64,000 nt of DNA from an uncultured delta proteobacterium (GCA_963789265.1 CAWBKB010000001.1:64001-128000); one strand, 5' to 3'. Counted from the stretch's first letter, positions 10,225-40,677 are shown. The notes: generated by a model from the letters alone, not told the origin. Program-made: numbers and translations.

Positions 10225-10329
10225 CCACAATGCTCTGCGATAGGCTCTGTCCGATGGTGCTCGATCCTACCATTCTTACGCTGTTTTCCCCTTTTGAGGC
10301 CGGTTCTTTCGTCGCGGGAAGGAGGAACG

Positions 10330-11880
10330 ATGTTCACTCTCGGTGATATCCCGCGACGAAGTGCTCGCCTATACGCTAACAAAGAAGCGCTGGTATTCGG
10401 AAACCATCGGCTTACCTTCGGTCAGTTTGACCAAAGAGTCAACCGCGCAGCCAACGCCCTTTTGAGTCTGAAATGCCAGAAAGGCCAGCGCATAGCCATT
10501 CTTTCGGAAAACAGCCACAAGTACCTTGAAGTCTATTTTGCCGCAGCCAAAGCGGGTCTCGTCGTAGTACCTTTGAACTTCAGGCTTTCCGCAAACGAGC
10601 TTCTTCAGATTGCCGGCGATTCCGAACCCGTCGTATTCCTGGCGGGCGAAGGCTACGAAAACATCGCATCGAGCATCGGGCGGCTATTACCGAGCATTCG
10701 CGTATGGATTGGTCTCGATAATCCGGTCGAAGGATGCTTCCTCTATGAAGACCTTTTGCAAGGTGCTTCTGATTCAGATCCTCGAATTTCGGTAGATGAG
10801 AATGAACTTGCAGTCTTGATGTACACCGGCGGAACCACCGGCCAACCCAAGGGGGTCATGCTCTCTCACAGAAACCTCCTCTCGGCAACTCTCGGAATGG
10901 CTCTGGGATTTCAGTTCAACGAATTTGACACTACTTGCATGTTTTTGCCTCTTTTTCACGCCTCAATCTGGCCGGTTTTCGTATGCATGATGGTCGGTGG
11001 AAGCGTCGTGTTGCTGAAGCGCCCTGACCTTGAAGTCATTCTTCAGGTTATTCAGGATGAAAAATGCACACATATGAATGCAGTTCCTACTGTCTATAAC
11101 TGGCTCATGGACTATCCTGGGCTGGACAATTACGACCTGTCGAGCCTTCGCCTCATTATTTATTCCGGCAGCCCGATGCCCCTGGAAATCCTCAGGCGGT
11201 GCATCAACAAGTTCGGCAACATTATGGCCCAAGGCTACGGGCTCACTGAAGCGGCTCCGCTTGTGACAATGCTCATGCCGCATGACCACGTTTTGGAAGG
11301 TCCCAGATCGAGGTTGTTAATGAGCGCCGGTAGAGAATCGGTACCGGTTGAGGCGAGTGTTGTAGGTGTGGATGGAAAACCTCTAAAGCCAGGCGAGGTC
11401 GGCGAAATAGCCGTCCGCGGGCCTAATATCACGACCGGGTACTGGAAGAACGAGAAGCTTACAAAAGACAAGATACGGGACGGATGGCTGCATACCGGTG
11501 ACGTGGGGAAGTTCGATGAAGAAGGATATCTCTATCTCATTGATCGCAAGGCCGACATGATCGTCACCGGCGGTGAAAACGTCTACCCCACGGAAACGGA
11601 AAATGTTCTCTACCAGCACCCGGCCGTCCACGAGTGCGTAGTTGTTTCGGCGCCCGACAACCGATGGGGGGAACGGGTTCAGGCGGTTGTGGTGTTGAAA
11701 GCTGGAGCCACCGCAAAAGAAGAGGAATTGATCGCCTTCAGCAAGGAAAGATTGGCTGGGTATAAATGCCCAAAGAGAATCGAATTCTGGGAGACGATTC
11801 CCAAGAGCCCTGTCGGCAAATTGCTTCGCAAAGATGTGAAAAGAGAGTTCTGGAAGGAGATGGAAAGAAGCATCAGTTAG
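10330..11880 (+). CDS. Acyl-CoA synthetase (AMP-forming)
   Basis: YTGGTTGQPKG, QGYGLTE, WLHTGD, GGENVYP, PKSPVGK; RBS ggagg. Confidence 0.93.
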   Translation: MFTLGDIPRRSARLYANKEALVFGNHRLTFGQFDQRVNRAANALLSLKCQKGQRIAILSENSHKYLEVYFAAAKAGLVVVPLNFRLSANELLQIAGDSEPVVFLAGEGYENIASSIGRLLPSIRVWIGLDNPVEGCFLYEDLLQGASDSDPRISVDENELAVLMYTGGTTGQPKGVMLSHRNLLSATLGMALGFQFNEFDTTCMFLPLFHASIWPVFVCMMVGGSVVLLKRPDLEVILQVIQDEKCTHMNAVPTVYNWLMDYPGLDNYDLSSLRLIIYSGSPMPLEILRRCINKFGNIMAQGYGLTEAAPLVTMLMPHDHVLEGPRSRLLMSAGRESVPVEASVVGVDGKPLKPGEVGEIAVRGPNITTGYWKNEKLTKDKIRDGWLHTGDVGKFDEEGYLYLIDRKADMIVTGGENVYPTETENVLYQHPAVHECVVVSAPDNRWGERVQAVVVLKAGATAKEEELIAFSKERLAGYKCPKRIEFWETIPKSPVGKLLRKDVKREFWKEMERSIS

Positions 11881-11915
11881 CAGAGAGAACGATTAGCCCA
11901 TGAAAGGAGACACGC

Positions 11916-13274
11916 ATGTCAAACAACAGCTTCACTCATTTGCTTAGCCCTATCAAGATAGGTCCGTTCGAGCTTAAAAACCGGATCGCACTTGCCCCGA
12001 TGAACGAGACTATGGCAGGCCTCAACGGGGAGTGCACGATGCAGGAAATCGCCTATTACGCTACCCGTGCAAAAGGGGGAGCCGCACTAGTAACCACCGG
12101 CGCCATTATGGCCACCAGGCTGGGATCACGGTTTGTGTGGGGACGCAACATGCACTGCTTTAATCCCGGCCACCTTCAAGGCTTGGGAATGCTGACCACG
12201 CACATTCATTATTTTGGGGGCCTTGCCAGTGCGCAGATGAGCATGGGGTTCGGCCGCCAGGGGCATTCATATGACGAGCATGAGCTTGCACCCGCTCCCA
12301 CGGCAGGGCTTCCCTATGAAGCAGCCATGAATACCCAGACAAAGGGGCTCGAGAAAATTTTTGCCAAAAATGAGAGGGCCCGTGGGTTCCTTGTAGGCCA
12401 GATGACGCGGGAGATGAGCATATCCGAGATCCGAAGCGAACAAAAGGAATACGCTCAAAGCTGCCAGCTTGCAGTTGTCGCGGGTTTCGACATGATCGAA
12501 ATCCATGGGCCCCACGGCTACCTCGAGCATGAGTTCCTCTCTCCCCTTTCTAATAAGAGAACCGACATGTACGGCGGGGAATGGAGGAACCGCAAGCGCC
12601 TCATCAACGATACGATGGAGCAGGTGCGCTATGCCTGTCCCGGCGTGGCCGTAGGAGTTCGTATTAGCGCAGAAGAGCACGTTGAGGGCGGTTTGACGCG
12701 CGAGGAAATGATCGATGTGGCCAAGGACCTGGAAGCCCGAGGCGCTGACTTTATAAGCCTCTCCGATGGCGGGGGTTATGAAGAGACATCTCACCTGGTG
12801 GGGACGGAAGAAGCTGCTGCACACATCCCCGATGCAGGTGCAGATTTCAAAAAGGCTTTGAAAATTCCGGTCATCGTTGCCTCCCAGCACGATCCGGTAA
12901 AGGCCGATGCAGATATCGCCACCGGCAAATTCGATGTGTCCGCCATGGCTCGACAGTTGTTTTGCGATCCGGAGTTTGCCAACAAGCTTATGCAGGGGCG
13001 TGCCGATGAAATCGTTCGTTGCAAGAGATGCAATATGTGCCTTATGCGGTGCCTTTCGGGCATTACTCCTGAATGTCCTCAAAATCCTTGGCTTGGCAGG
13101 GAATATGCCGACCCCGACTACGGCTTTGGAGCCCGCAAAAAAGGCGAGTCTATACTGATGAAGGGTATGCAGAACGCACCGATGCCCGCACTGGAAAGAC
13201 CGTGGTGGAAACCCGAGGTCCCGCTGCTTGAAGAACACTGGAGAGCTTTCCGGGGTCCCGGTCCAAGGCAATAG
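11916..13274 (+). CDS. NADH:flavin oxidoreductase (OYE-type barrel + Cys-rich Fe-S motif, no FAD domain)
   Basis: LKNRIALAPM, IEIHGPHGYL, NKRTDMYGG, CKRCNMCLMRC...C. Confidence 0.88.
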   Translation: MSNNSFTHLLSPIKIGPFELKNRIALAPMNETMAGLNGECTMQEIAYYATRAKGGAALVTTGAIMATRLGSRFVWGRNMHCFNPGHLQGLGMLTTHIHYFGGLASAQMSMGFGRQGHSYDEHELAPAPTAGLPYEAAMNTQTKGLEKIFAKNERARGFLVGQMTREMSISEIRSEQKEYAQSCQLAVVAGFDMIEIHGPHGYLEHEFLSPLSNKRTDMYGGEWRNRKRLINDTMEQVRYACPGVAVGVRISAEEHVEGGLTREEMIDVAKDLEARGADFISLSDGGGYEETSHLVGTEEAAAHIPDAGADFKKALKIPVIVASQHDPVKADADIATGKFDVSAMARQLFCDPEFANKLMQGRADEIVRCKRCNMCLMRCLSGITPECPQNPWLGREYADPDYGFGARKKGESILMKGMQNAPMPALERPWWKPEVPLLEEHWRAFRGPGPRQ

Positions 13275-13409
13275 TGGTTGAGTGTTTCGGTCCCCCTTCG
13301 CTGTTTCGCATGAGGGACCTGAGCACAATATTCCACTAAGCGCGACAGGAAGACGAGGCGAACTGGCAAGTTCATGTGGAGATTTGACCAAACAGTAGAG
13401 GAGCATCAA

Positions 13410-14423
13410 ATGACAATGGAGCTTAACCGGGATGACTTCTTCAAGATCGATCCGGAACCTCATTTGGTGGGAGATAGTGAGCCTTTCGAGTATTTTCCGG
13501 GTGTCAGACTGTGGTGGCACTCAATCGGAGCAATAACGCGGCCGATGATGCAGGGAATGCCAAAATCCTTTATGGAGACGCTTGAACCACACGAATTGAA
13601 GAAGAATGCCGATCCGGCCTCATTACTTAACGCCATGGACAAGTACGGGGTGGATATCGCCTGTCTATTGCCCGAATCCATGATGGACACAACGGGCTTT
13701 ACCGGTCGTTTTTGCAGTAACGGTGAAATGGCAAAGGTAGTCGAATCGAATCCCGACCGCTTCATGTATCAGCCTAACATCTCTCCCATCAAGTACAAGG
13801 GCGTCAAGAACACGATATGGGAACTCGAATACTGGGTAAAGGAGAAAGGCGCCAAGATCTTCAAGTACTACCCGCCCGAAGACACCCATATCAACGACCC
13901 TGACCTCTGGCCTTTCTACAAGAAGGCAGAGGAGTTGGATATCGTGCTGGATATACACACCGGCTTCGGCTGGTGTGCACCCGGAAAGTTCAACAACGGC
14001 CTTCCTGCCTACTTGGATGACGTGGCCCGCGACTTTCCGGAACTGAAAATCGTAGCCTTCCACATGGGATACCCTTATTGCGACGACCTCAACATGGTGG
14101 CAATGGCTCATAAGAATGTCTACGTCTGTATAAGCCTCGTCGTAACTTGGGCTCTTTCCTCTCCCCGTAAATTCGCCAAGATGCTCGGTGAGGCTATGCG
14201 ATGGGTAGGCCCCGACAAAATCATCTGGGGCAGCGACGATCCGGGGCTTCACATGCAGATGGCTTGCGCTGTCAGGGGCTTCAGGGATTTTGAGATACCG
14301 CAGGATTTGCAAGAGCAGTACGGCTATCCGGAGGTAACGGATGAAGATAAACGGAAAATTTTCGGTGAAAACCTTGGGAAACTTATGGGCATAGACACCT
14401 CGAAAAGAAGGGTTCCTGCATAA
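13410..14423 (+). CDS. Amidohydrolase_2 family protein
   Basis: AMDKYGVD, DIHTG, FPELKIVAFHMGYP, IIWGSDDP, IFGENL. Confidence 0.85.
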   Translation: MTMELNRDDFFKIDPEPHLVGDSEPFEYFPGVRLWWHSIGAITRPMMQGMPKSFMETLEPHELKKNADPASLLNAMDKYGVDIACLLPESMMDTTGFTGRFCSNGEMAKVVESNPDRFMYQPNISPIKYKGVKNTIWELEYWVKEKGAKIFKYYPPEDTHINDPDLWPFYKKAEELDIVLDIHTGFGWCAPGKFNNGLPAYLDDVARDFPELKIVAFHMGYPYCDDLNMVAMAHKNVYVCISLVVTWALSSPRKFAKMLGEAMRWVGPDKIIWGSDDPGLHMQMACAVRGFRDFEIPQDLQEQYGYPEVTDEDKRKIFGENLGKLMGIDTSKRRVPA

Positions 14424-14462
14424 CTACTACAGTGTGGACGAATTGAAGGGAGACATGAGGTC

Positions 14463-15666
14463 ATGTCCAAGGCGGAGTTTGCAATCATAGGCACGGGCGA
14501 AGTCCCCTGTGGCATATACCCGCACAGAAGTGAGTTCGAAATAGCGTACAGGGTTGCCAAGCTGGCTATAGAAGACGCTGGGATCGACAAGAACGAAGTC
14601 GGGGCGGTGCTCAATGCAGCCCATATCATGGGTTCGGAGTTCAACACGGAGGCATTCTTCGGGCGTCTCCCGGAAGCCATTGGGGCCAAAGGCTGCAAAA
14701 TTGTGGCCACTACGGTTTCCGGGGGCGGATCGAGCTTTTCCATAAGGAAGACGGCCGAAGGCATCCTACACTCCGGTGAGACCGATTACGTTCTGGTTAT
14801 ACATGCCCAGCGTTTTTCCCAGTTTCCGGTCAACGAGCAAATAAACTTCTTTGCCCATGCCGGCTCCGATTTGGAATGGGAAGTCCCTTATGGCATGACC
14901 TACAACGCCCTCTCCGCCATGATGACCCAAGGCTACATGGCCTATACCGGGACAACTCTTGAACAGGTGGCAAGCGTATGCGTGGCTTGCCGGAAATGGG
15001 CAAATCTGCAGCCTAATGCCATGTTCTGGGACAAGATCCTCACAGTTGAGGACGTGCTTAATAGCCGAATGGTTGCATACCCCTTGACTGCACTGATGTG
15101 CAACGTCCTGGCCGACGGTGGATGCGCATACATCATGACCACTGCAAAAAAAGCAAAAGAGGTCTGTTCCAGGCCCGTGGACGGTACTGGGGGAAGGCTC
15201 CGACTTCAGCCATCGCAGCATCATAAATCTCAAAACCAAAGACCTCGACAAAATGTATGAATTCTATGCCCCCATTGCCCAAAAGGCCTATGAGCGTGCT
15301 GGCCTTGGACCGAAGGATATGGATATATATGAAGTCTATGGCGCTTATCCTATCACCTCCCTGATGTTTTTGGACTCGCTGGGCATCGTGGAGCCGGGAA
15401 AGTCCGGCGCACTCGTGGAATCAGGTCAGACTAGCCCTGGCGGGAAGTATCCAACTTCCACCAACGGGGAGGCAATGAGCTTCGGCCATACCGGTACGGG
15501 AGTCGGTTTTTCGGTTTTCGTGGAAGGTGTTCGTCAGCTTCAGGGCAAAGCTGGAAAGGCACAGGTTGAGGGTGCCCGATTCCTTATAGAAAATTGTGGC
15601 GGCGGCGCTTTCATGGACGCTCACTTCACCATTCTGGGCACCGAAATCCCGAGTCCTGGACTTTGA
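14463..15666 (+). CDS. SCP2/Ltp2-type thiolase-fold protein (frameshift near 15180)
   Basis: AIIGTGE, NPNAM-like LQPNAM, PLTALMCNVLADGG, VLGEG, STNGEAMSFGH, VRQLQGKAG. Confidence 0.85.
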
Positions 15667-15696
15667 ATCCCAACTCCACACCCAAGGAGCAAGGCA

Positions 15697-16152
15697 ATGA
15701 ATATGAAAGACACTCTCAAGCAGAAGTTGGGATGCACAGACAAAGATTTCATAAAGCCCCTACCTATGCCGGCGCCCTGGTCAAAACCTTTTTGGGAGGC
15801 CGCCAGGCAGCACAAATTGGTCCTCAAGAAATGTAAAGACTGCGGGCATATCGATCATCCCCCTTATCTCTACTGTACGTCTTGCTCCAGTGAGAATTGC
15901 GAGTGGGTCGAAGCGTGTGGCAAGGCTACGCTCTATGCCTACGCTGTGAACCTCTATGGAGTTCCTTTCGCGTTTATAGAAGATCTTCCCTATGTGCTGG
16001 CTCTGGTCGATCTCCCGGAAGGGCCTCGCATGATCTCGAACATTGTCGGCTGCGACCACAAGGATCTCAAGAACGGTATGGAGCTGGAGGTGGTCTTCGA
16101 TGATGTTTCGCAGGAAGTCACGCTCCCTAAATGGAAACCAGTTTCGAAGTAA
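15697..16152 (+). CDS. DUF35 Zn-ribbon/OB-fold partner protein
   Basis: PFWEAA, CKDCG, CTSC, PYVLALVDLPEGPRMISNIV. Confidence 0.92.
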   Translation: MNMKDTLKQKLGCTDKDFIKPLPMPAPWSKPFWEAARQHKLVLKKCKDCGHIDHPPYLYCTSCSSENCEWVEACGKATLYAYAVNLYGVPFAFIEDLPYVLALVDLPEGPRMISNIVGCDHKDLKNGMELEVVFDDVSQEVTLPKWKPVSK

Positions 16153-16164
16153 GGGGATGCACGC

Positions 16165-16971
16165 ATGGCAAAGCAGTACGAAAGACTCCTCTGTGAGCGT
16201 AAAGGCGTTGGGAAAGAAGCGTTATGGATCACCCTGAACAATGAAGAAATGCGCAACGCACTCGACGCCACGATGCAGCGAGAGTTGCTCGATGTCCTTA
16301 ATGAAATCGCCTTCGATCATAGTATCCGCTGTGTGGTAATTACAGGCGCAGGTGAAAAAACATTCTGCAGCGGCGGAGATATCAACGCATTTCAAGCGAT
16401 GAATCACCTGACTGGGTACGACAACATACGCCAGAGAGGCAATGCCATTCAGCAGCTTCTCAGCAATATGGAAAAACCGGTAATAGCCGCGGTAAACGGC
16501 CATTGTTATGCGGGCGGGCTAGAACTCGCGCTCATGTGCGACTTCATCTACGCCACTGAAAAATCTACCTTCGGGCTCGTGGAGATAAACCTGGGGCTTC
16601 TTCCTGCCTGGGGCGGGACAGTAGGGCTGCCCAGGGCGGTTCCAATCCGGCGGGCGAAGGAAATGATCTTTCGTGGCGAAGTCATTGAAGCCCACGAAGC
16701 TCATAAATGGGGCTTAGTAAATCGGCTTTTTGCCTCTCGCGATGAAATGATGAAAGAAATCGAAAAGGTTGTCGAAGAGATCATATCCAAACCCGCGATG
16801 GCTTTACGGGTGGCGAAGGCTATCGTGAACACGTCTATGTCTTGCAGCAGCCCGGATGCCATCATGTCGATCGAAAGAGGCAATATCATGTGGTTGTGGT
16901 CGTCTGAAGATTTGCAGGAAGGAGTCGCTGCTTTTGTGGAGAAGCGGAAACCCCAATTCAAGGGGCGATAA
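16165..16971 (+). CDS. Enoyl-CoA hydratase/isomerase
   Basis: FCSGGD, AVNGHCYAGGLELALMCD, GLVEINLGLLP; both catalytic Glu present. Confidence 0.93.
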   Translation: MAKQYERLLCERKGVGKEALWITLNNEEMRNALDATMQRELLDVLNEIAFDHSIRCVVITGAGEKTFCSGGDINAFQAMNHLTGYDNIRQRGNAIQQLLSNMEKPVIAAVNGHCYAGGLELALMCDFIYATEKSTFGLVEINLGLLPAWGGTVGLPRAVPIRRAKEMIFRGEVIEAHEAHKWGLVNRLFASRDEMMKEIEKVVEEIISKPAMALRVAKAIVNTSMSCSSPDAIMSIERGNIMWLWSSEDLQEGVAAFVEKRKPQFKGR

Positions 16972-16982
16972 GGGAGTATTAA

Positions 16983-18146
16983 ATGGATTTCCAGTTCACG
17001 GATGAACAAAAACTTATTCGGGATACCTACCGCAAATTCCGCGAGAAGGAATTCACTCCGGACTATGTCCGATGGGTCGACGAAAACTGTGATTTTCTCC
17101 CGGAAGATATGCTGCAAAAGCTCGCCGAGCTTGGGACCATGGGCATCACGATCCCTCAGGAATATGGCGGCCTTGGCTTGGGAATGACCGAGTTCTGCAT
17201 CATCGCCGAGGAATTATCCATTGCCAGTCCGGCTATAGCGATGTGCGCACTCATTGGACTATCTTTCGGCGCTACGCCCCTACTGGGAATAGGCACTGAA
17301 GAGCAAAGGCGAGAGCACCTTCCGCGGATCGCTGCCGGAAAGGAAAAGTGGTCGTTATGCATGACCGAGCCCGACGGCGGCACCGACATTCTAGGGGCCA
17401 TAAAGACATCATCGGTTAAAGATAGCGGCAATTATGTCGTGAACGGAACCAAGATGTGGATATCAGGGGCGCATAAGGCCGATTACTTTATGACCCTCGT
17501 TATAACGGACAAAGCGGTTGAACGAAAAAAAGGACTCTCAGCCCTGATCATCGATGCAAGGAGCGAAGGGATCTCGATACGTCCCATCCAAAAGCTCGGT
17601 ATACATGGATGCGGCGTGAACGAGGTCCGCTTTGACGATGTGAGAGTGCCTGCTGAAAACCTGCTCGGAAAGGAAAACCGCGGTCGGTACCAATTGCTCG
17701 GGACCCTAAATCCGGAACGCATCTCCACGTCGCTTTTCTCACTGGGCATTGCAATGGCGGCGTTAAACTATGCCGTTCAATATTCTAAAGAGAGAACAGC
17801 CTTTGGGAAGACTATCGGCAGTTTTCAGATATTGCAGCATTACCTGGCCGATATCGCCATAGAGATCGAGAACGCACGCAACCTGATCTACAAGTGCGCA
17901 TGGCTGTGCGATACAGGGCAAAAATATGACGTGGAAGTAGCAATGGCCAAGATCGTGGCATGCCGCGCTTCCGAGCTGGCGGCTCTTCACGGAATGGAGA
18001 TCCTCGGGGGCTACGGTTTTGCCATGGAATACGACATGCAGAGATACTTCAGGGATTACAAGCAAATGAAATTTTCACCGATTTCCGACGAAATGGCCAG
18101 GAACTACATTGCGGAGGTCGGGTTTGGACTTCCCAGAAGTTTCTGA
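16983..18146 (+). CDS. Acyl-CoA dehydrogenase (BbsG/CaiA-like subgroup)
   Basis: TEPDGGTD, GTKMWIS, LNPERI, FGKTIGSFQ, GGYGF, SPISDE, GLPRSF. Confidence 0.9.
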   Translation: MDFQFTDEQKLIRDTYRKFREKEFTPDYVRWVDENCDFLPEDMLQKLAELGTMGITIPQEYGGLGLGMTEFCIIAEELSIASPAIAMCALIGLSFGATPLLGIGTEEQRREHLPRIAAGKEKWSLCMTEPDGGTDILGAIKTSSVKDSGNYVVNGTKMWISGAHKADYFMTLVITDKAVERKKGLSALIIDARSEGISIRPIQKLGIHGCGVNEVRFDDVRVPAENLLGKENRGRYQLLGTLNPERISTSLFSLGIAMAALNYAVQYSKERTAFGKTIGSFQILQHYLADIAIEIENARNLIYKCAWLCDTGQKYDVEVAMAKIVACRASELAALHGMEILGGYGFAMEYDMQRYFRDYKQMKFSPISDEMARNYIAEVGFGLPRSF

Positions 18147-18226
18147 CGAGCTATCGGACTCTGCCCGAAAACAAGACTGGTAGCTAGCCCGCTGGAGCGA
18201 CGCTGACCCTTGGAAAAGGAGAGTGC

Positions 18227-19087
18227 ATGGAAGGCCTGATCGGGACCATAGTAGATGCCTTGATGTTGTCGTCGATATACATCCTGGTGTCTGTGGGTTT
18301 CGCTCTTGTTCTTAGCATCATCGGCATCCTGAATTTCGCCCACGGCGCCCTGTACATGATCGGAGGTTATGTCTGCTACTGGCTGTCGGTGCAGTGTGGC
18401 CTGAATCAATGGCTGTCACTGCTTCTGTCCGCCTTGGTGCTCGGCCTGGCCGGCTTGTTCCTCGAGAGGTTTTGTTTTCGCCCCTTCGCCGGTGATCCTA
18501 ACCGCACGATAATTATGGCCATAGCCCTAATTCTGGTTCTGGAGACTACCATCAACGTGCTGGCCGGAGGCGTCACCAGGACCATATCACCATTTGTTCC
18601 CGGCCTATTGAAGGCAGGGGCTATATCGGTGAGTCTCGAAAGGGTGGCAACCATGATCATGGGCGGAGGCCTGTTGCTGGGCTTAACACTGTTCATAGAG
18701 AAGACTAAGACGGGTCAACAGATGCTGGCCGTGTCCCAGGACCCGGAAGGGGCAATTTTGCAAGGGATTCGCATCCATCGTGTTGCCGCATTGGCCGTTG
18801 CCATGAGTTGCGCTCTTGCCGCCCTTGCCGGATCTTTTATGGGGGCTATTTTCGATCTGAAGCCATTTATGGGTGGGCCAATGCTTGTAAAGGCGATTCA
18901 AGTGGTCGTCCTGAGTGGCGTGGGCAGCATAGGAGGCGTATTGGCAGGAGGATTGATCATCGGAACCATTGATACAGTGCTGCCTCTTTTCGCTGGCGGC
19001 GCTGTGACACAAGCAGTCGGGCTCGGCATCATCATTGTGCTCCTCCTTCTCAAACCTCAAGGGTTGTTTGGTCGCGAGGTGGCATAA
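18227..19087 (+). CDS. HAAT ABC transporter permease (LivH-like)
   Basis: ILNFAHGALYMIGGY, multiple TM segments, LKPQGLFG. Confidence 0.92.
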   Translation: MEGLIGTIVDALMLSSIYILVSVGFALVLSIIGILNFAHGALYMIGGYVCYWLSVQCGLNQWLSLLLSALVLGLAGLFLERFCFRPFAGDPNRTIIMAIALILVLETTINVLAGGVTRTISPFVPGLLKAGAISVSLERVATMIMGGGLLLGLTLFIEKTKTGQQMLAVSQDPEGAILQGIRIHRVAALAVAMSCALAALAGSFMGAIFDLKPFMGGPMLVKAIQVVVLSGVGSIGGVLAGGLIIGTIDTVLPLFAGGAVTQAVGLGIIIVLLLLKPQGLFGREVA

Positions 19088-19090
19088 ATT

Positions 19091-20059
19091 ATGGCCCCCA
19101 AGTGCCGCGGATTGATAAAGGTATCGATGGTTGTGGGCCTCGTGGCTGTCCTGGCCGCAATTCCACTCTTTGTCAAGTCTGTCTATTTCTTGCACATCAT
19201 TATTCTTGTCTACATCTATGTGATTGCCGCCAGCAGTCTCCGCACGATTGCGATTTCAGACCAACTGTCTCTGGGCCACGCCGGTTTCATGGGCATCGGA
19301 GCCTATACTTCGGCCGTATTGGCCAAGCAATTAGGCTGGACGCCGTGGCTCACCATGCCCTTGGCAGGGGTGGCTACGATGGTGGTGGCCATAATAGTCG
19401 GGTACCCGTTCTCGAGGTTGAGGACATTCTATTTCTCCATGGTGAGCCTCTTCTTCGGGATGGGTATTCTGGCTGTTAATACCATCTTCAGCAGATTCAC
19501 CGGGGGCTATTACGGTCTTGCCGGGATTCCTCCATTGTTCGTAGGATCAAAAGTACCTTTCTACTTCTTCTTCCTTGGGTTGATGGTCCTCAGTCTTCTT
19601 TTCCTTTACCGTTTCGAGTCTTGCCGGATAGGCACATGCCTCAAGGCCGTGGCGCAATCACACGAGGTGGCAGCCAGCGTAGGGATTGATGAATCCGGAT
19701 ACAGGGTGCTGGCCTTGGCCGTGGGCTGTTTCATTGTCGGACTGGCAGGCGCCGGATACGCTCATTATAACCTGGTGCTCTCCGAGAGTTCCTTTGATCT
19801 TCTGGCCAGCATCAATCTGATGGTCTACATGGTCGTCGGAGGAATTGGCAGCTTCGCCGGGCCGATCATAGGTGCGGCTGTCCTCGTAGTCGTCCCCGAG
19901 ATGTTTCGCGGGCTGAAAATGTTCACACCCTACGTATTCGCGGGCATCGTAATACTGACCATCTTCCTTATTCCGCATGGGCTTGTCGGCCTCTATGAGA
20001 AGATTGGTTTTCACTCCAAAGAGTCCGCTAACGAAGGCAGGAAGACCGGTGTTGCTTGA
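19091..20059 (+). CDS. HAAT ABC transporter permease (LivM-like)
   Basis: QLSLGHAGFMGIGAY, VGGIGSFAGPIIGA. Confidence 0.92.
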   Translation: MAPKCRGLIKVSMVVGLVAVLAAIPLFVKSVYFLHIIILVYIYVIAASSLRTIAISDQLSLGHAGFMGIGAYTSAVLAKQLGWTPWLTMPLAGVATMVVAIIVGYPFSRLRTFYFSMVSLFFGMGILAVNTIFSRFTGGYYGLAGIPPLFVGSKVPFYFFFLGLMVLSLLFLYRFESCRIGTCLKAVAQSHEVAASVGIDESGYRVLALAVGCFIVGLAGAGYAHYNLVLSESSFDLLASINLMVYMVVGGIGSFAGPIIGAAVLVVVPEMFRGLKMFTPYVFAGIVILTIFLIPHGLVGLYEKIGFHSKESANEGRKTGVA

Positions 20060-20810
20060 AATCAAGCGATTGACCAAGCTCTTCGGCGGATTGACCGCTG
20101 TGAGTAACCTCGACATGTACGTCGAGGAAGGGGAAATGGTTGGTATGATCGGCCCAAACGGCGCGGGAAAGAGTACCCTCTTCAACTTGATTACAGGCTT
20201 TATCCGTCCAACGACAGGAAGAGTGATCTTCGATGAGAAAGACATCACGAGTACAAAACCGCACAGGATCGCCCGGCTGGGCATAGGTCGTACTTTTCAA
20301 CTGAACCCGCTTTTCGGGGAGTTTACCGTTCTGCAAAACGTGATCGCTTCTTTCTACCTGCACCCGAAATCGAGTTGGCGTGCCGCGTTTTTCAATACTT
20401 CCACGTACCGTCGCAATGAACGCCGGATCGCAGCGGAGGCCCTCGCTATCCTGGACCTGCTTGGATTGGATAAGACGAAAGATGTACCGGCAAAGCATCT
20501 GCCCCACGGATACCAGAAGATGCTCGGCGTTGCCAGGGCATTGGCTACAAGACCGAAGCTGCTCTTGCTCGACGAACCCCTCGGCGGAATGAATCCCGCT
20601 GAAATAGAGTTCGCAATGGAGATAATCGACAAAACACGGCAGCAGGGGATAACGATCCTGCTGGTCGAGCACAATATGCAGATCATGGACATCGTCGATC
20701 GGGTCGTGGTCATAAACTTCGGCCGGAAGATCTGCGAAGGCACAATTGATGAGGTGAGAGAGAACGAGCAAGTCGTGGAGGCCTACTTTGGCACCGACCA
20801 CTCTGCTTAG
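20049..20810 (+). CDS. ABC ATPase (LivG-like)
   Basis: GPNGAGKST, RTFQ, LLLLDEP, VEH, EAYFG. Confidence 0.92.
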   Translation: MLLEIKRLTKLFGGLTAVSNLDMYVEEGEMVGMIGPNGAGKSTLFNLITGFIRPTTGRVIFDEKDITSTKPHRIARLGIGRTFQLNPLFGEFTVLQNVIASFYLHPKSSWRAAFFNTSTYRRNERRIAAEALAILDLLGLDKTKDVPAKHLPHGYQKMLGVARALATRPKLLLLDEPLGGMNPAEIEFAMEIIDKTRQQGITILLVEHNMQIMDIVDRVVVINFGRKICEGTIDEVRENEQVVEAYFGTDHSA

Positions 20811-21504
20811 TGTAAAGGAGATAACGGTTCAATACGGAAAGGCCACGGCAATAGATGGAATTTCCCTTTCTGTTGCCGAAGGGAGCGTCGTCGGTATGAT
20901 CGGGGCCAACGGAGCAGGCAAGACAACCGTTTTGAGGGCTATTTCCGGGCTGACACCGTTGCGCTCGGGGGAGATCTTCTTCGAGGGCAAGAGGATAGAC
21001 AAGACGGACCCGGCGGACATCGTGAGAATGGGTGTGATCCACATTCCTGAAGGCCGACGGCTCTTCCCGTATCTTTCGGTTATGAGCAACCTTAAACTTG
21101 GGGCCAGCCTGCGCAAGGATAAGGACGGGATCAAGAAAGACCTGGATGAGGTCTTCGGATACTTCCCTCGGCTCTATGGAAGAAGGAATCAAAAGGCCGG
21201 TACCCTGAGCGGTGGAGAACAGGAAATGCTGGCAATCGGTCGCGGCTTGATGGCCAAACCGAAACTCCTCCTCATGGATGAGCCTTCACTGGGGTTAGCA
21301 CCGATAGTGGTCAACGATCTGGCGGTTGTGATCAACAACGTCAACAGTGGGGGAGTGTCTGTGTTGCTCGTTGAGCAAAGCATTCCTTTGGTCCTTCGAG
21401 TTGCCGAACGGGGTTATGCACTGCAAGTGGGCAGGGTCGTGATGGATGCCGATATAGGAGACTTTAAGGCCGGCCTTGTCAAAAAGGCTTACCTGGGCGG
21501 ATGA
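20788..21504 (+). CDS. ABC ATPase (LivF-like)
   Basis: GANGAGKTT, LSGGEQ, DEPSLGLAP, AYLG. Confidence 0.92.
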   Translation: MAPTTLLSVKEITVQYGKATAIDGISLSVAEGSVVGMIGANGAGKTTVLRAISGLTPLRSGEIFFEGKRIDKTDPADIVRMGVIHIPEGRRLFPYLSVMSNLKLGASLRKDKDGIKKDLDEVFGYFPRLYGRRNQKAGTLSGGEQEMLAIGRGLMAKPKLLLMDEPSLGLAPIVVNDLAVVINNVNSGGVSVLLVEQSIPLVLRVAERGYALQVGRVVMDADIGDFKAGLVKKAYLGG

Positions 21505-21585
21505 GATAGACACCGATGTTTAACAGATGAACTATAGCAACTACGCAATCAAAGGAATTCATCAAGGCCCGGATAAGAGGACACT

Positions 21586-22371
21586 ATGGGTCGTTTAGAG
21601 AACAGAGTCGCCATCGTTACAGGGTCGAGTTCCGGTTTCGGCAGGGCCATTGCCAAGGCCTTTGCTGATGAAGATGCCAAAGTGGTTTGTTCCGACCTTC
21701 GTGTCGAAGCACGTGATGAAGGGTTTGAGATGGATCTTGGTGTTTCTACCCATGAAGCCATCCAAAAGGCCGGTCATGAAGCGGCATTTGTTTGCTGCGA
21801 CGTTTCAAAAGTTGGTGAGGTGAAGGCGTTAGTTGAGGCAGCGGCAGAAAAGTACGGTCGCCTTGATATTATGGTTGCCAACGCCGGTATCTTTCCGGGC
21901 TTGGCCAAAATCCATGAAACCACCGAGGATGATTATAGCCTGAGCATGAATGTCAATTGTAAGGGTCTCTGGAATTCCAACCAGCAAGCCATAGTCCAGC
22001 TCTTGAAACAGGGCATAGGTGGAAAGGTTATCAACATCATCTCCATAGGGGGCTTGGTCGGGATTCCCAAGGGAGCCGCTTATTGCACGGCGAAAGGAGC
22101 GGCATCGAACCTTACGCGGCAATTAGCCGTTGATTACGGCCGCGACGGGATTACCGTCAACGGAATTTGTCCCAATTTCGCAGCGACAGCCATGACCAGG
22201 CCCGCTTATCATGACAAGGGCATGCAATCGTTCGTACAGGGCCGGACCCCGCTCGGCCGATGGGCGACCTCAGAGGACGTGGCCAGGCTGGCCGTCTTTT
22301 TGGCATCGAGCGACGCAGATTACATAACTGGAGCGCTCATACCGGTCGATGGAGGGTACACAGCGCAATAG
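21586..22371 (+). CDS. Short-chain dehydrogenase/reductase
   Basis: TGSSSGFG, NAG, YCTAK, VDGG. Confidence 0.93.
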   Translation: MGRLENRVAIVTGSSSGFGRAIAKAFADEDAKVVCSDLRVEARDEGFEMDLGVSTHEAIQKAGHEAAFVCCDVSKVGEVKALVEAAAEKYGRLDIMVANAGIFPGLAKIHETTEDDYSLSMNVNCKGLWNSNQQAIVQLLKQGIGGKVINIISIGGLVGIPKGAAYCTAKGAASNLTRQLAVDYGRDGITVNGICPNFAATAMTRPAYHDKGMQSFVQGRTPLGRWATSEDVARLAVFLASSDADYITGALIPVDGGYTAQ

Positions 22372-22520
22372 GCGCTGCGGTGGTGCTGCCGGAAACCTGG
22401 CATTTTAACCCGCGTTGTGGCTGGTGGAATCCTTCGGATAGTGCAGACAGTGAACCAGGCAAACAGAGGCTGTCAGAATTAGATCGTGTCAGTCTTCAAT
22501 TCAAAACGAGGAGGCCGCTC

Positions 22521-23734
22521 ATGAGGACGAAAGGGTTTTTCTGGACCATGGGAAGTATTACGATGACTTCCCTATTTGTGCTACTGGTCTTTTCTTCCGT
22601 CGGATTTTCCGCTGAAAAGACTTTAAAGATCGGATGCATCACCGCTCTGACAGGCTTTGCTGCTCCCGGGGAGGGACCAATGGGGGTGGGCAGTAGCTTG
22701 GCCGCGGATTGGATCGACGAGAACGGCGGGATCACGATCAAAGGCGAGAAATACCGTGTAAAGCTTGTCACCGAGGACCATAAGAGCACTGCTGAGGGCG
22801 CGGCAGCCGCGGCTAACAAACTTGTCTACGAGGACAAAGTGAAGTTCATTATCGGCGGCATGATGCCCTTCACCAATATCGCCATAGGCGGCGTGACGGA
22901 ACCGGCTAGGGTTCTTCACGCATCAATCGGTAACTGTTCCGCCATCCCCGACGAATACGGACCCAAAACTCCTTACTCATTCTACACGATGAACGGCACC
23001 GCTGAAGACATCTGTACCATGCTTGACTACATCAAAGCGGACCACCCAGAGGTCAAAACGATTGCGGTCACCCAACCGGATGATGGCAGTATTCCCATTA
23101 TGCAGCCCAGGGTAATGCAGATCGCCAAAGAGCACGGGATGACCCTGTCAGGGGACGTGATCGGTTATGCTCTTGATACAGTGGATTTCACTCCCATCGC
23201 GAAGAAGATTCTTGCTCGCAACGCCGACGGGATATGTATTGTAAACGGCTGGCCATCCATGGTCGGGGTGTTCTAAAAATCGCCCGCCAATCCGGCTCCA
23301 CCAAGCTTATATGTAATGTCAATCATCCTCAAGCAGAGGACATTCTCAAAGTTGCAGGTTCAGAGAATTCAACAAACTTCTACTTCCATAGTCTTCTTCC
23401 GAACGATCCCAAGAACCAGCCTATAGTTGCCGAAGTGCTGCGCAGGCTCAAAGCCAAAACTGGTAATGGCGACAATCTGTGCTACGCATCCATTGGGTTT
23501 GATAACCTCTGGATGGTAGTTCAGGCCATCGAAGCAGCACAAAGCCTTGACCCGACGGTGGTAAGGGACAAGTGGCAAACGATGGACACCATGAAAAGCG
23601 TGTGGGGAACCGCGCACCGGGGTGGTTTGAAAACCTACGGGATGAATCATACAATGACTCATCCCTTGCCTGTAGTGAGCTATGTGAAAGGCCAACCGAA
23701 GACCATGAAGTGGGTGGATATAACGGCGCCATAG
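22521..23734 (+). CDS. HAAT ABC substrate-binding protein (frameshift near 23270)
   Basis: Signal peptide, LKIGCITALTG, ENGGITIKG, DFTPI, AIEAAQSLD. Confidence 0.85.
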
Positions 23735-23898
23735 TATGCTTGGTTGCTGCTTCTGGACCCGGGGCAGGCTCAGAGCACTGCCCTAGGTCTTTTGGGGGCC
23801 GACAGATCCATTTTACATCATCAAGTAGGTCGCCGCTGCCTCGTATAGAGAAGAACGGAATGCGAGGGCCTCAAAGCACACACGGGAGCACAGCGAAG

Positions 23899-26602
23899 AT
23901 GTCGAAGACAGCGAGTCTAGGAGAGCTCAAGCGCATCCGTACTACCTGCCGTGCCTGCGGGAAGATGGAATGCGGGGTTTGGGTGACAGTCAAGAACGGC
24001 CGTGCCATCAAGATTGAGGGTGACCTCTCTGCACATCAGAGCAGAGGGAATTGTTGTACCAAGAGTATGGCATCGCTCCAGGCTGTGTATCACCCCGACC
24101 GCATCAAGTATCCAATGAAACGCACTCGACCCAAGGGAGAAGATCCCGGCTGGGTGAGGATTTCGTGGGATGAGGCATTGGAGACGACCGCCACGAAGCT
24201 GAAAGAGATCCAGAGTAAATACGGCGGCAAGAGCATCTTTACTATGAACGGTACGATGCGAATTTGGTCGATGGGCGGCTATGCGGCTCTAAGGCAATTG
24301 GTTCAGACACCGAACTGCATCGTGACCTACCAGGTGTGCAAGGGGCCTCGACATTTCGCCACCAAACTCACCGATGAATTCGGTTCCAGTTGGATGGCTA
24401 CAGTGGACAACCCAAAGGTCTACGTTCAGTGGGGAGCATCTCCGGAGATTTCAAACTACGACGATTCCGGGCGCACTACTGTCGATGCATATACCAGGGC
24501 GCAAACTGTACATCAGCGTTAATCCCCGCTTGTCCAATGCGGGAAAGGAGGCCCACATCTGGCTGCCTTTGAGACCCGGAACTGATGCGGCCATGGCCCT
24601 ATCCTGGATCGACGTTATCATCACTAATAAGCTTTATGACCCCCTGTTTTGCAAGCGATGGACGAACGGCCCTTTCCTTTACTGCCCAGACATTGAACCC
24701 GGCGGAGGCACCCACGACAACGGCTGGGGCTTTGAGTTCCAGCTCAAGACGAGGTTGCTCAAAGAAAGCGATATAGTAGAAGGTGGGAATCCAAAGCGGT
24801 TCATGGTCTGGGACAATGTCAACAGCAGACTCACCTACTTCGACGCCGAAGTCATGCTTTGGGAAGGCGAAATTTTCCGGCCACCGACCAGTGGTACCGA
24901 GGTTCAGGGAGGATTTCTTCCCGAGCCATCGAAGTTCGATCCGCCCATTGACCCGGCAATCTTCGGTGAATTCACGGTAACACTGAGGGACGGCAAGAAA
25001 TCGAAGGTCACCCCCGTCTTTCAGCTCCTGGCTGAACGTGCGGCCCGGTATGCCCCCGAGCACGCCGAAAAGATCACGGGCGTCCCTGCTGAAAAAATAG
25101 AGCTTGCAGCCAAGACCTATGCCACCCGGCTTCATGAGCGTTGCGGAAACGGCGGCATCCAGTACATGTTGGGAGTCGAACATGGAGGCAATTGCATTCA
25201 GGCCGTCCGCGCTCTGGCCTTGCTGGTCGGCATTACCGGCAACTTCGATGGGCCCGGCGGAAACAGAGGACCCACCAAGGCGAACATTATCCAGTCCGTA
25301 GGCGGGTTCGCGCCGGGCGCTCCGCCGCCGCCGTCCGATGAGATCCTCGGCCTAGATCGGTTCCCTCTGCTCAAGTGGTGGGGAGGTATATGGGCCGATG
25401 CAACCTCAGTCTGGGAGGCAATCCATACCGGCGAACCGTATCCTGTCAAGGCCGGCATATGCCAGTCCAGCACCTTCGCGACCATGTGTAATTCCGCCTA
25501 TACCTGGGAGGCCCTGAAAAAGCTTGACTTCTTCGTGGTCATAGACCTCTGGCGCCATCCGACTGTAGAAATGGCCGATATCGTCTTTCCAGCCTGCCAC
25601 TGGCTAGAGGTGGACTGTCCGCGCATATCCCAGGGCAGCAGCGGAGGCGCCGGCGCCAACGTCCGGTGCATTGAGCCACCTGGTGAGTGCAAGCCCGATT
25701 ATGAATTTGTGCAGCTTCTATTCAAAGCAATGAGAGTGCCTTACGGTCCCGATCCCAAGGATCCGTGGCCCGGTGTGGAAGCAGATCTTGACCAGTCTGT
25801 GACCGGACTGGGGATGACCTGGAGGGAGTACAAGGAGAAATTCCAGAAGGAGGGATGGTTCGACGTCAAGAAGCTATTCCCCAAGCATTGGGGCACTTAC
25901 CGACGCTATGAAATGGGCGTTCAGCATCGGCCGCTCCGGACCGTCGGAAAGGGATTGATGGATGAATTCTTTATGGTGGACACGGACCGCGAGTTGGTAC
26001 CGGGATTCAACACTCCCACGGGTAAACAGGAGATCTGGTCCACCGTCATGGAGACCTTCCTTCCGGGACAAGACTATGAGCTCCCCAACCATGAAGAGCC
26101 TCCCGAGAGCCCAATCCGTACACCGGAGATCTACGAAAAGTATCCGATTACAATGATCACCGGGCGGCGTATTCCGGTCTACTTCCACACCGAACACCGC
26201 CAGTTGCCGTGGTGCCGCGAGCAGTGGCCGGCTCCACTGGTTGAAATCAACCCAGAAACAGCCGCAAAGTACGGCATCAAGCAGGGTGATTGGGTTTGGA
26301 TCGAGAACGACAGGGGGCGCATGCGCCAGCAGGCCGATCTCTACCACGGAATTGCTCCAGACGTCATCAACTGCGAGCACTCGTGGTGGTATCCGGAGGC
26401 TCCCGCCCCGGAGCACGGCTGGAGGTACTCGTGTGTCAACCAGCTTGTCGACAGTCGTTCTCAGGACCCGATCTGCGGTTCAGTCCATCTCCGCGGTTAT
26501 CCGGTCAGGATTTACAAGGCCGAAGAAGGTGCCCCTGAAGGAATAATTACTTCGAGCGACGCCCCGATGCTGGGGCAATGGTTGCCGCCCAACGAGGAGT
26601 AG
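23899..26602 (+). CDS. bis-MGD molybdopterin oxidoreductase, catechol dehydroxylase (Dadh/Hcdh)-like catalytic subunit (frameshift near 24500)
   Basis: CRACGKMEC..C 4Fe-4S motif, YHPDR..YPMKRT, QVCKGPRHFAT, SNYDD, LRPGTD, GNGGIQYML, TGRRIPVYFH; no Tat signal. Confidence 0.85.
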
Positions 26603-26607
26603 GCGTG

Positions 26608-27216
26608 ATGCGAAACGCAATAGTCTGCGATCTGGATCGCTGTACGGGTTGTCTGACCTGTTCGGTAGCGTGCAAGATGGAGAATAAAGTTCCCATTGGC
26701 TCCGCCCATACCAGAGTTATGAGGATAGGCCCCAACCCGAAACGTGAGGGCGCGCGGTTCCCGGACGTCGAACTGTACTTTCTGCCGCTCTCGTGCCAGC
26801 ACTGCTCCGACCCTGAGTGCATCAGCGTGTGTCCCACCGAGGCTTCGTACAAGGCCCTGGATGGGGCAGTGCTGATCGACGCGGAAAAGTGCAATGGCTG
26901 CAAGTTGTGTATAGAAGCCTGTCCGTATGGCACCCGTCATTACAATTCACAACGAGATATTGTTGAAAAATGCACCATGTGCAACCACCTAGTGGTCCAG
27001 GGCGAAGAGCCTATGTGTGTATCGCAATGCGTCGGACGAGCTCTCGTGTTCGGAGATCTGGACGATCCCCATAGCCCTGTGTCTGTGATGATCGCCGCCG
27101 CCGGGGACCATGTGTACAGCTTGCTCGACGCAGGCAATCATCCGCCGTTCAAGTACATCCTCCGGAAGGCAAAGTGGAGAGAGTATCCAAGACCAGGTTC
27201 TGAGAGTTGTGTTTAA
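26608..27216 (+). CDS. 4Fe-4S dicluster electron-transfer subunit (DmsB-like)
   Basis: CTGCLTCSVAC, CQHC..PEC...CP, CNGCKLCIEACP, KCTMC...C...C. Confidence 0.93.
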   Translation: MRNAIVCDLDRCTGCLTCSVACKMENKVPIGSAHTRVMRIGPNPKREGARFPDVELYFLPLSCQHCSDPECISVCPTEASYKALDGAVLIDAEKCNGCKLCIEACPYGTRHYNSQRDIVEKCTMCNHLVVQGEEPMCVSQCVGRALVFGDLDDPHSPVSVMIAAAGDHVYSLLDAGNHPPFKYILRKAKWREYPRPGSESCV

Positions 27217-27545: not shown

Positions 27546-27548
27546 ATG

Positions 27549-40652: not shown

Positions 40653-40677
40653 ACCGGCAGAGAGTTGTGTAGCAACA

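Follow-up and report, generated by a model that had tools for sequence, protein, structure and literature searches.

A run of catabolic genes at 10294-27216 of a 64,000-nucleotide stretch of DNA from an uncultured delta proteobacterium (GCA_963789265.1 CAWBKB010000001.1:64001-128000; this whole stretch is the window) has, in our estimate, about an even chance of being a mosaic of three modules in the catabolic island of an anaerobic degrader of aromatic compounds. Module 1 (10294-18146) would be a widespread, uncharacterised CoA-dependent set, which activates a carboxylic acid and shortens its side chain. Module 2 (18227-23734) would be a strain-specific LIV-type ABC importer with its own short-chain dehydrogenase/reductase (SDR) and binding protein, and module 3 (23899-27216) a cytoplasmic two-subunit enzyme with molybdenum or tungsten bound by a bis(pyranopterin guanine dinucleotide) cofactor (Mo/W-bisPGD), descended from relatives of the gut catechol dehydroxylases that are exported by the twin-arginine translocation (TAT) pathway. 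The run is read as a mosaic because its modules recur apart from each other and none of the other genomes searched has the combination. What is new here is probably a TAT-less environmental branch of the catechol-dehydroxylase clade, standing beside what appears to be an aldol-cleaving variant of a widespread CoA module.

The run, established from a listing of open reading frames (ORFs) and from Pfam and NCBIfam scans, lies entirely on the + strand. Its spacers measure 3-99 bases or are replaced by overlaps, with the exception of about 149 bases between the SDR and the binding protein and 164 bases between the binding protein and the Mo subunit. All genes named in the original prediction, made from the sequence alone, are present and co-oriented in the order given there, the start of the run being at 10294, and its family assignments hold. 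The genes of the run are:

10294..11880, +: AMP-forming acyl-CoA ligase (AMP-binding, AMP-binding_C)
11916..13274, +: flavin mononucleotide (FMN) enzyme of the old yellow enzyme (OYE) family (Oxidored_FMN), with a C-terminal [4Fe-4S] Cys motif and without a NAD(P)H/FAD domain
13374..14423, +: Amidohydro_2 TIM-barrel metal enzyme, decarboxylase/hydratase branch (Pfam)
14463..15666, +: SCP2-type thiolase-like protein (Thiolase_C_1), 400 amino acids (aa) once corrected
15697..16152, +: stand-alone DUF35 protein with OB fold and C4 zinc ribbon (OB_ChsH2_C, zf-ChsH2; motif CxxC-x12-CxxC)
16165..16971, +: crotonase-type enoyl-CoA hydratase (ECH_1, E 1.4e-66; NCBIfam matches all below cut-offs)
16983..18146, +: acyl-CoA dehydrogenase (three ACAD domains)
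18227..21504, +: LIV-type ABC importer, two permeases and two ATPases (BPD_transp_2 twice, ABC_tran twice, BCA_ABC_TP_C)
21586..22371, +: SDR oxidoreductase (adh_short_C2)
22521..23734, +: periplasmic binding protein with signal peptide (Peripla_BP_6 on both pieces), 404 aa once corrected
23899..26602, +: Mo/W-bisPGD catalytic subunit, 900 aa (Molybdop_Fe4S4, Molybdopterin, Molydop_binding)
26578..27216, +: DmsB-type electron-transfer subunit, 212 aa (Fer4_11; four Cys groups for [4Fe-4S] clusters)

Separate distribution of the modules

Three anchors, namely the amidohydrolase, the Mo subunit and the binding protein, were searched for in the 69 other genomes of the family. The amidohydrolase is matched at E <= 1e-30 in six of these and at a second place in the window's own genome. 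Six of the nine amidohydrolase places outside the window were fetched (two 3.5-kb contigs of G025 and a 41% match in G047 were excluded), and all six hold the ligase, amidohydrolase, thiolase, DUF35 protein, hydratase and dehydrogenase at 37-71% identity, in two arrangements; the window's Mo and iron-sulfur (FeS) genes were found in none of them. A different, acetylene-hydratase-like Mo enzyme lies inside the module in one of the six loci (L048, from G026, a genome of the same genus). This 712-aa protein (L048:8039-10177) is encoded between an SDR gene and an SCP2 gene, the latter being present in the L048 and L052 module copies; it has no FeS partner, and its best solved relative is acetylene hydratase (E 5.1e-101). 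L052 and L053 are otherwise syntenic with L048 but lack the 712-aa Mo gene. A gene 83% identical to the L048 Mo enzyme is found elsewhere in the window's genome (C6:133645-135762). In L048, L049, L051, L052 and L053, the module is followed by an SDR of 276 aa, which has no orthologue in the window: the SDR of the run is only 30-34% identical to the module SDRs of L048 and L049 and is not their orthologue. The L049 module continues with its SDR and with TRAP transporters, which point to a carboxylate substrate.

The second module copy in the window's genome (L053, G000:C1:1308500-1328400) has the order thiolase-DUF35-hydratase-dehydrogenase-ligase-amidohydrolase-OYE-SDR. About 22 kb from it (L094, G000:C1:1289000-1308499), an acetylene-hydratase-like Mo gene, frameshifted in the record, is directly followed by a LIV-type ABC importer; a block on the opposite strand separates these genes from the module copy. 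The window's genome holds at least six acetylene-hydratase-like paralogues, and with that many, and an importer near the second copy, chance adjacency is therefore a real alternative to a functional link.

The Mo subunit has no match at E <= 1e-100 in the 69 family genomes (up to 15 candidates scored per genome), and the binding protein has none at E <= 1e-40. A sample of 400 further genomes of the phylum, with 2 candidates scored in each, gave one match to the Mo subunit, and 2 of 36 Mo loci in a collection of species representatives reach at least 78% identity; the 30 Mo loci of a metagenome scan include one partial sequence at 65% identity, the rest being at most 60% identical and mostly of gut type. 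Orthologues of the Mo subunit at 78-81% identity are encoded at three loci (L002, L003 and L088, the last from G360), where the FeS partner is kept at 70% identity and the rest of the context differs. The ligase, amidohydrolase, thiolase, DUF35 protein, hydratase, importer and binding protein are absent from all three.

In L002, which has the closest orthologue, the pair is accompanied by a second Mo paralogue, an SDR, an M24 protein, E1 alpha/beta, E2, a TorD-like chaperone, E3 and lipoate genes. Within L002:944-16589, it lies between E1 alpha/beta-E2 and E3 of a complex of the 2-oxoacid/acetoin-dehydrogenase type, and a LipB-LipA fusion is present. This layout recalls, as a resemblance only, the hydroxybenzoquinone-dehydrogenase genes of the oxidative resorcinol pathway (PMC10084136). 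L003 holds an XDH-family enzyme, a Mo paralogue, DsrC, a hydrolase, an MFS gene directly upstream of the Mo/FeS pair, HdrA/MvhD/GltD-like genes and an aldehyde:ferredoxin oxidoreductase, and L088 holds two HGD-D-family genes, TetR, DUF1329/DUF1302, a flavoprotein and a sigma-54 activator. In L088:8651-14370, the pair is followed by the two HGD-D-family genes, which encode subunits of the 2-hydroxyacyl-CoA dehydratase/benzoyl-CoA reductase type, with no obvious activator gene in this stretch. With the window included, the Mo/FeS pair stands in four different genomic contexts and is portable.

These counts bear on the core of the original prediction, which had coupled ring dehydroxylation to CoA-dependent side-chain removal in one pathway: the module is missing from all three Mo loci, and the Mo enzyme from all six module loci and, at E <= 1e-100, from all 69 family genomes. 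No co-occurrence of this Mo enzyme with the module was found elsewhere in these loci and genomes, which comes close to the outcome that the prediction itself had named as speaking against it. Given L048, there is still a hint of some association between the module and the acetylene-hydratase-like clade.

Predicted functions and genomic setting

The CoA ligase of module 1 matches the NCBIfam model PRK06187 with 533.9 bits, above the cut-off of 476, and its best solved relatives are the fatty-acyl/feruloyl-CoA synthetase structures 8weu and 8wev (E ~1e-99). The OYE enzyme carries the cluster motif CKRCNMC...C at residue 369, and its best solved relative is 2-naphthoyl-CoA reductase (NCR; 6qkg, E 1.1e-36), 2,4-dienoyl-CoA reductase also being close. 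Its earlier description as a flavin reductase is right about the flavin, which is FMN; it is not a generic flavin reductase and appears as an FMN/[4Fe-4S] OYE reductase of the NCR/dienoyl-CoA-reductase kind. For the acyl-CoA dehydrogenase, the best NCBIfam models are AcrC (acryloyl-CoA reductase), glutaryl-CoA dehydrogenase and cyclohexanecarbonyl-CoA dehydrogenase, all below cut-offs, and the name BbsG-like received no specific support.

In an alignment of 29 sequences of the amidohydrolase, E28, H30, H195, H230 and D288 are invariant. A Foldseek search with its AlphaFold2 model (pLDDT 84.8) returned BB4693 and then 2,6- and 2,3-dihydroxybenzoate decarboxylases, LigW, LigJ and LigY (E ~1e-11, TM ~0.6, 15-18% identity); the nearest structure is 3irs, an uncharacterised protein. 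The window's protein shares the TIM-barrel fold and the Glu-x-His, His, Asp set of metal ligands with γ-resorcylate decarboxylase (γ-RSD), 2,3-dihydroxybenzoate decarboxylase, LigW, LigJ and LigY, and we take Glu-x-His to be the mark of γ-RSD/LigW; unlike this group, to which it is only 15-18% identical, it stands beside CoA-ester enzymes. The predicted fold suggests that the enzyme falls in the branch that decarboxylates, hydrates or cleaves acids derived from aromatic compounds, its reaction being putative. No NCBIfam model matches it, and the protein atlas gave clusters named 'Amidohydro_2' only. Relatives at E <= 1e-10 number 606, the best 120 of which share 68-88% identity and come from several phyla, anaerobes among them; named members among relatives P0122-P0241 include Desulforhabdus, Desulfosporosinus, Dehalococcoidia and Actinobacteria. 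The family is unusually conserved, and a functional name for it was found in no source.

The thiolase was rightly predicted to lack its cysteine: in alignments, Thr takes the place of the catalytic Cys found in 7yvy and BbsB and kept by the L049-L051 homologues (CNAGG). The protein has YGAY where thiolases have HDCF/HDAF and the aldolases Ltp2/Sal have YDHF/YDCY (PMC12329534). The Tyr of YGAY is at the position of the catalytic base in Ltp2 and Sal (PMC12329534), and the Asp and His/Cys of the aldolase motifs are absent. The BbsB model scores 69.5 and 52.3 bits with the two thiolase pieces in the record (cut-off 750) and the BbsA model 43.3 bits with the DUF35 protein (cut-off 250); with scores below these cut-offs and no nucleophilic Cys, the pair is not BbsAB. 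Because of the two sequence features (Thr for Cys, and the Tyr) and the absence of the module SDR, we infer that the window's copy of the module may cut the side chain by hydration and retro-aldol cleavage and not by thiolysis. Module 1 would then proceed here from dehydrogenation through hydration to a retro-aldol cleavage into an aldehyde or ketone and acetyl-CoA.

The thiolase-like protein and its partner share with the steroid aldolases Ltp2-ChsH2 and Sal-Shy the missing nucleophilic Cys, the Tyr as first residue of the motif and a DUF35 protein with a C4 zinc ribbon (PMC12329534). In contrast to Ltp2 and Sal, the motif is YGAY, DUF35 stands alone as a protein and a crotonase takes the place of a MaoC-type hydratase; no steroid genes were found near the run. 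The β-oxidation of 3-phenylpropanoids in anaerobes is known from Desulfococcus multivorans, Aromatoleum aromaticum EbN1 and Rhodopseudomonas palustris, that of 3-phenylpropanoate and cinnamate being described for a sulfate reducer (PMC5109826), and module 1 resembles these systems in the operon-like arrangement of ligase, dehydrogenase, hydratase and thiolase next to aromatic genes (PMC5109826). With the bbs operon it has in common a thiolase paired with a DUF35 protein, as in BbsAB. It differs from both in the added OYE and Amidohydro_2 enzymes and in a thiolase without nucleophile, and from bbs furthermore in scores far below the BbsA and BbsB cut-offs and in the use of a ligase instead of a CoA transferase. 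The binding protein of module 2 has weak matches to urea-binding proteins as its only solved relatives, which give no hint of the ligand.

The Mo subunit of module 3 begins with MSKTASLGELKRIRTTCRAC. Its FeS partner has Cys groups at residues 22, 73, 105 and 132 and neither a signal peptide nor a membrane segment (maximum hydropathy 1.18). For the C-terminal piece of the Mo subunit, the best solved relative is the acetylene hydratase of Pelobacter acetylenicus (2e7z, E 2.8e-47; next match 1.2e-24), as it is for the orthologue P0003 (E 7.4e-63; next match 5.5e-42); thiosulfate reductase is far behind acetylene hydratase, and pyrogallol transhydroxylase is not among the solved-structure matches. 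The corrected protein is 82% identical to P0002, 79% to P0003, 73% to P0006, 69% to P0007 and 64% to P0009, and 51-53% identical to unnamed proteins of Eggerthella sp., Eggerthellaceae and Parvibacter. It shares with acetylene hydratase the cluster Cys residues and the Cys aligned to the hydratase metal ligand (ICKGPRH vs MCIGNT), whereas it has Gly after the second cluster Cys, where acetylene hydratase has Asp, is about 170 residues longer and has an FeS partner. This Asp is presumably catalytic and the aligned Cys presumably the metal ligand. Measured against acetylene hydratase, the Cys is thus present in the aligned sequence, and the Asp and the partnerless monomer are not.

A twin-arginine motif was found in none of the Mo proteins of the window, L002, L003 and L088, and is present in most Mo relatives at 69% identity or less, including P0007. 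In a FastTree phylogeny of 73 Mo sequences (support values not printed), the TAT-less proteins group together in a single clade that lies within TAT-bearing proteins of about 950 aa, and the window's subunit nests among the Eggerthellaceae and Parvibacter proteins. No gene for a membrane anchor was found: the next gene after that of the FeS subunit is transposase-like and on the - strand, and the interval holds no hydrophobic ORF. In the Coriobacteriia loci L021 and L005, a crude scan found the ORFs after the FeS gene to be without hydrophobic segments, and this was not used.

Acetylene hydratase is the nearest relative of the catechol dehydroxylases, whose homologues occur in anaerobic degraders of aromatic compounds and have been noted in Desulfobacula, Thauera and Azoarcus, among others (PMC7028382). 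Those of the Eggerthella type are TAT-exported and membrane-anchored, and those of the Gordonibacter type are cytoplasmic, consist of two subunits and are encoded beside transporters; hydrocaffeate dehydroxylases are known in both gut types (PMC7028382 and PMC11887054 for the types, PMC11887054 for hydrocaffeate). The window's Mo subunit is nearer to acetylene hydratase than to other characterised members of the DMSO-reductase family, which is how the clade is delimited in PMC7028382, and it has the Fe4S4, Molybdopterin and Molydop_binding domains and the FeS partner subunit of that clade. Its sequence thus places it in the acetylene-hydratase/catechol-dehydroxylase clade, as had been predicted; the description as Dadh-like is fair at this level and no closer, the nearest gut relatives being unnamed Eggerthellaceae proteins at about 50% identity. 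The TAT signal and membrane anchor of the Eggerthella type are missing. Two apparently cytoplasmic subunits beside a transporter agree with the Gordonibacter type in layout only, and the pair looks like a Gordonibacter-type layout on an apparently TAT-bearing lineage. The enzyme would most likely remove, and less likely add, a ring hydroxyl on a phenolic acid in the cell, with electrons from a donor passing through the four-cluster subunit.

The assembly around the window (G000:C1:64001-128000) comprises 6.06 Mb in 9 contigs and is 95.6% complete. The nearest homologues of the window's proteins are named Desulfosarcinaceae, Desulfobacteraceae or 'Deltaproteobacteria', and these names suggest that the host is a sulfate-reducer-like member of the Thermodesulfobacteriota. 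The 6-oxocyclohex-1-ene-1-carbonyl-CoA hydrolase BamA/Oah is found in the genome with 553.6 bits, above the cut-off of 464, and the genome is therefore equipped for the anaerobic benzoyl-CoA pathway. An aromatic setting is likewise indicated by the feruloyl-CoA-synthetase-like ligase, the naphthoyl-CoA-reductase-like OYE enzyme, the decarboxylase-like amidohydrolase and the neighbouring clusters, which are aromatic in type. The aromatic-acid setting of the original prediction agrees with the ligase, the amidohydrolase fold and BamA/Oah, while its coupling of dehydroxylation with side-chain removal is unsupported. The run is bordered by two genes:

9116..9952, +: C-terminal part of a TetR-family regulator (weak TetR_N match), preceding the run
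27569..28627, -: IS200/Y1-type transposase-like gene with a DnaA_C helix-turn-helix (Y1_Tnp and Bac_DnaA_C), the 3' border of the run

The product of the TetR gene is 33% identical to residues 149-416 of a MerR/TetR regulator upstream of the L049 module, and the N-terminal part of the gene probably lies upstream in another frame. Beyond this regulator, at 6600-8675 on the - strand, there is a full-length 691-aa enzyme of the FadH/BaiCD/2-enoate-reductase type with OYE and pyridine-nucleotide disulphide oxidoreductase domains; in L049, an OYE fragment likewise lies upstream of the regulator. Downstream, a second catabolic unit at 28968-42127 encodes a PAS histidine kinase, a sigma-54 response regulator, an XDH-family enzyme, a PaaK-like CoA ligase and a LIV-type ABC importer. 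The best NCBIfam models for the XDH-family enzyme are the alpha (545.7 bits) and beta (199.7 bits) subunits of 4-hydroxybenzoyl-CoA reductase, both below cut-offs, and it is possibly a second ring dehydroxylase, from another Mo family and less than 10 kb from the first. At 52732-63419, CoA-centred genes encode a carboxyltransferase, methylmalonyl-CoA mutase with its B12 subunit, another Amidohydro_2 protein, a nitroreductase, a long acyl-CoA dehydrogenase, an SDR and a 2,3-dihydroxybenzoate-AMP-ligase-like enzyme (391.7 bits, below cut-off).

Alternative explanations

Several observations weigh against the mosaic reading. The 16 genes of the run all point the same way with little space between them, and the + strand has no terminator-like site from the binding-protein gene to the Mo gene, so that they may be transcribed together and hence serve a shared function. 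The GC content of the Mo/FeS genes, overall and at third codon positions (GC3), is like that of their neighbours; there is therefore no sign of a recent foreign insertion. The Mo enzyme inside the L048 module is a hint that the module and this clade of enzymes are functionally linked. Moreover, the name dehydroxylase is carried over to the Mo enzyme from its clade, the substrate class proposed for module 1 is putative, the structural matches of the amidohydrolase being only 15-18% identical and those of the binding protein being weak and to urea-binding proteins, and the putative retro-aldol step is deduced from two residues of a protein that lacks the Asp and the His/Cys of the aldolase motif. 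Transcription signals do not rise above chance, which would give 14.2 promoter-like and 18.6 terminator-like sites where 14 and 22 were found; a promoter-like site of this chance-frequency kind is found at 23627-23655, just before the Mo gene. Reads of three public short-read runs (X2, X3 and X5) cover about 10001-23300 and almost nothing of 23400-27400. No contig joins across this gap in cover, which is therefore not evidence for strains without the Mo genes.

It is unlikely, though far from negligible, that the run is one operon for one pathway, in which the importer would bring in a catecholic aryl-alkanoate (hydrocaffeate-like), the Mo enzyme would remove its para-hydroxyl, and CoA activation and side-chain removal would supply the benzoyl-CoA pathway with a hydroxybenzoyl-CoA or an aldehyde. 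The co-orientation and tight spacing of the genes, with no terminator-like site ahead of the Mo gene on the + strand, the likeness of the ligase to feruloyl-CoA synthetase, BamA/Oah in the genome and the L048 module with a Mo enzyme of the same broad clade are consistent with this, and so are a cytoplasmic Mo enzyme by an importer, which mirrors the Gordonibacter type (PMC7028382), and hydrocaffeate dehydroxylases of both gut types (PMC11887054). However, the distribution argues against it: neither the module nor the importer is present at the three orthologous Mo/FeS loci, the window's Mo enzyme is in none of the six module loci, and none of the 69 family genomes has this enzyme (E <= 1e-100) or the binding protein (E <= 1e-40). 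The 164-base spacer before the Mo gene is furthermore the longest in the run and holds the promoter-like site, and nothing marks the substrate as a catechol; 'catecholic' and 'caffeate-like' were guesses. Somewhat less likely still is a non-aromatic substrate, i.e., an alicyclic or branched acid whose 3-hydroxyacyl-CoA resists oxidation, which would account for the aldolase-like thiolase, with the Mo enzyme acting not as a dehydroxylase but, in the manner of acetylene hydratase or other hydroxylases of the DMSO-reductase family, as a non-redox hydratase or a water-dependent hydroxylase. The only solved and characterised close relative of the Mo enzyme is indeed a hydratase, the L048 Mo enzyme has the size of acetylene hydratase and no FeS partner, the dehydrogenase matches glutaryl-CoA and cyclohexanecarbonyl-CoA dehydrogenase models, an SCP2 gene accompanies the L048 and L052 copies, and pairs of a Cys-less thiolase with DUF35 are known from steroid side chains (PMC12329534). 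Against such a substrate speak the neighbouring clusters of aromatic type, the structural neighbours of the amidohydrolase, which act on aromatic or lignin-derived acids, and the four-cluster FeS partner, which argues for redox chemistry. The Mo enzyme has, in addition, Gly in the place of the catalytic Asp of acetylene hydratase. Its nearest large group of relatives consists of Coriobacteriia enzymes, whose characterised members dehydroxylate catechols (PMC7028382).

A further reading, which we regard as doubtful, makes the TAT-less Mo/FeS pair a cytoplasmic reductive dehydroxylase of a CoA thioester (of the 3,4-dihydroxyphenylpropionyl-CoA or protocatechuyl-CoA type), which would act together with the thiolase-free hydratase/retro-aldolase route. 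Sulfate-reducing and denitrifying bacteria are reported to dehydroxylate protocatechuyl-CoA to 3-hydroxybenzoyl-CoA, a reaction that, to our knowledge, still lacks an assigned enzyme. If true, this reading would carry catechol-dehydroxylase chemistry beyond gut respiration into the carbon catabolism of sediments. Under the mosaic reading, the Mo/FeS pair may condition the imported acid, a link drawn from adjacency and not from a conserved pathway design, and a shared pathway for hydroxylated aryl-alkanoates is possible by adjacency alone.

The record splits three genes of the run (thiolase-like protein, binding protein and Mo subunit), and with two further split genes of the same look in the window, those of the response regulator at ~30750 and of the XDH-family enzyme at ~33990, it could be asked whether the run is a decaying remnant with the thiolase, binding-protein and Mo genes as pseudogenes. 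Logan contigs of four public short-read runs were aligned to 10001-28000; the run X1 is near-identical to the window (40 of 42 pieces at >=99%), and X2, X3 and X5 come from relatives that are 90-99% alike. One base fewer than in the record is present at position 15183 in the X1, X2 and X3 contigs and at position 24507 in the X1 contig, and the X3 contig has an additional C behind 23266. After these three one-base corrections, the frames are open for a thiolase-like protein of 400 aa, a binding protein of 404 aa and a Mo subunit of 900 aa. The three genes are thus intact in the organism because the contigs carry compensating changes and the frames open fully, and similar breaks across the window are as expected of indel errors in a long-read assembly. 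The pseudogene reading of the three split genes is therefore very improbable and was rejected.

Environmental relatives of the gut dehydroxylases

The Mo/FeS pair has in common with the gut dehydroxylases (Dadh, Cadh and Hcdh of E. lenta; Dodh and Gp Hcdh of Gordonibacter) a bis(molybdopterin guanine dinucleotide) subunit with an N-terminal [4Fe-4S] motif, a multi-cluster FeS partner and acetylene hydratase as the nearest solved relative, and the window's Mo subunit is about 50% identical to many Eggerthellaceae paralogues. The two-subunit, apparently cytoplasmic layout is like that of the Gordonibacter type. In contrast to the gut enzymes, the window's Mo subunit nests among TAT-bearing proteins of about 950 aa and yet has lost the TAT motif, no anchor, accessory or LuxR-type regulator gene adjoins the pair, and the host is an environmental anaerobe with a benzoyl-CoA pathway, in which the pair adjoins CoA-dependent catabolic genes. 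A dehydroxylase coupled to β-oxidation was not found in the literature searched, which includes few subscription journals. Recently proposed clusters for benzene activation (PMC13416013, PMC13101534) were considered as well; in the available text of these papers, they consist of different proteins and are unrelated to the module.

The catechol dehydroxylases characterised so far are those of gut Coriobacteriia, and homologues in environmental degraders of aromatic compounds were noted in 2020 without an assigned role (PMC7028382). The window defines a small TAT-less environmental clade, which comprises the window, three other loci and a few metagenome proteins, always keeps the FeS partner and moves among anaerobic catabolic contexts; it may thus be a tractable entry to the function of these enzymes outside the gut. 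The analysis also brings to light an unstudied module that is widespread and highly conserved. It consists of CoA ligase, Amidohydro_2 enzyme, thiolase/DUF35 pair, hydratase and dehydrogenase, and the window holds a variant of it that has seemingly switched from thiolysis to aldol cleavage. If the parts of the run do not cooperate, they are a caution against inferring pathways from adjacency in a single genome; if they do, they would define a route for the anaerobic turnover of lignin-derived hydroxylated phenylpropanoids.

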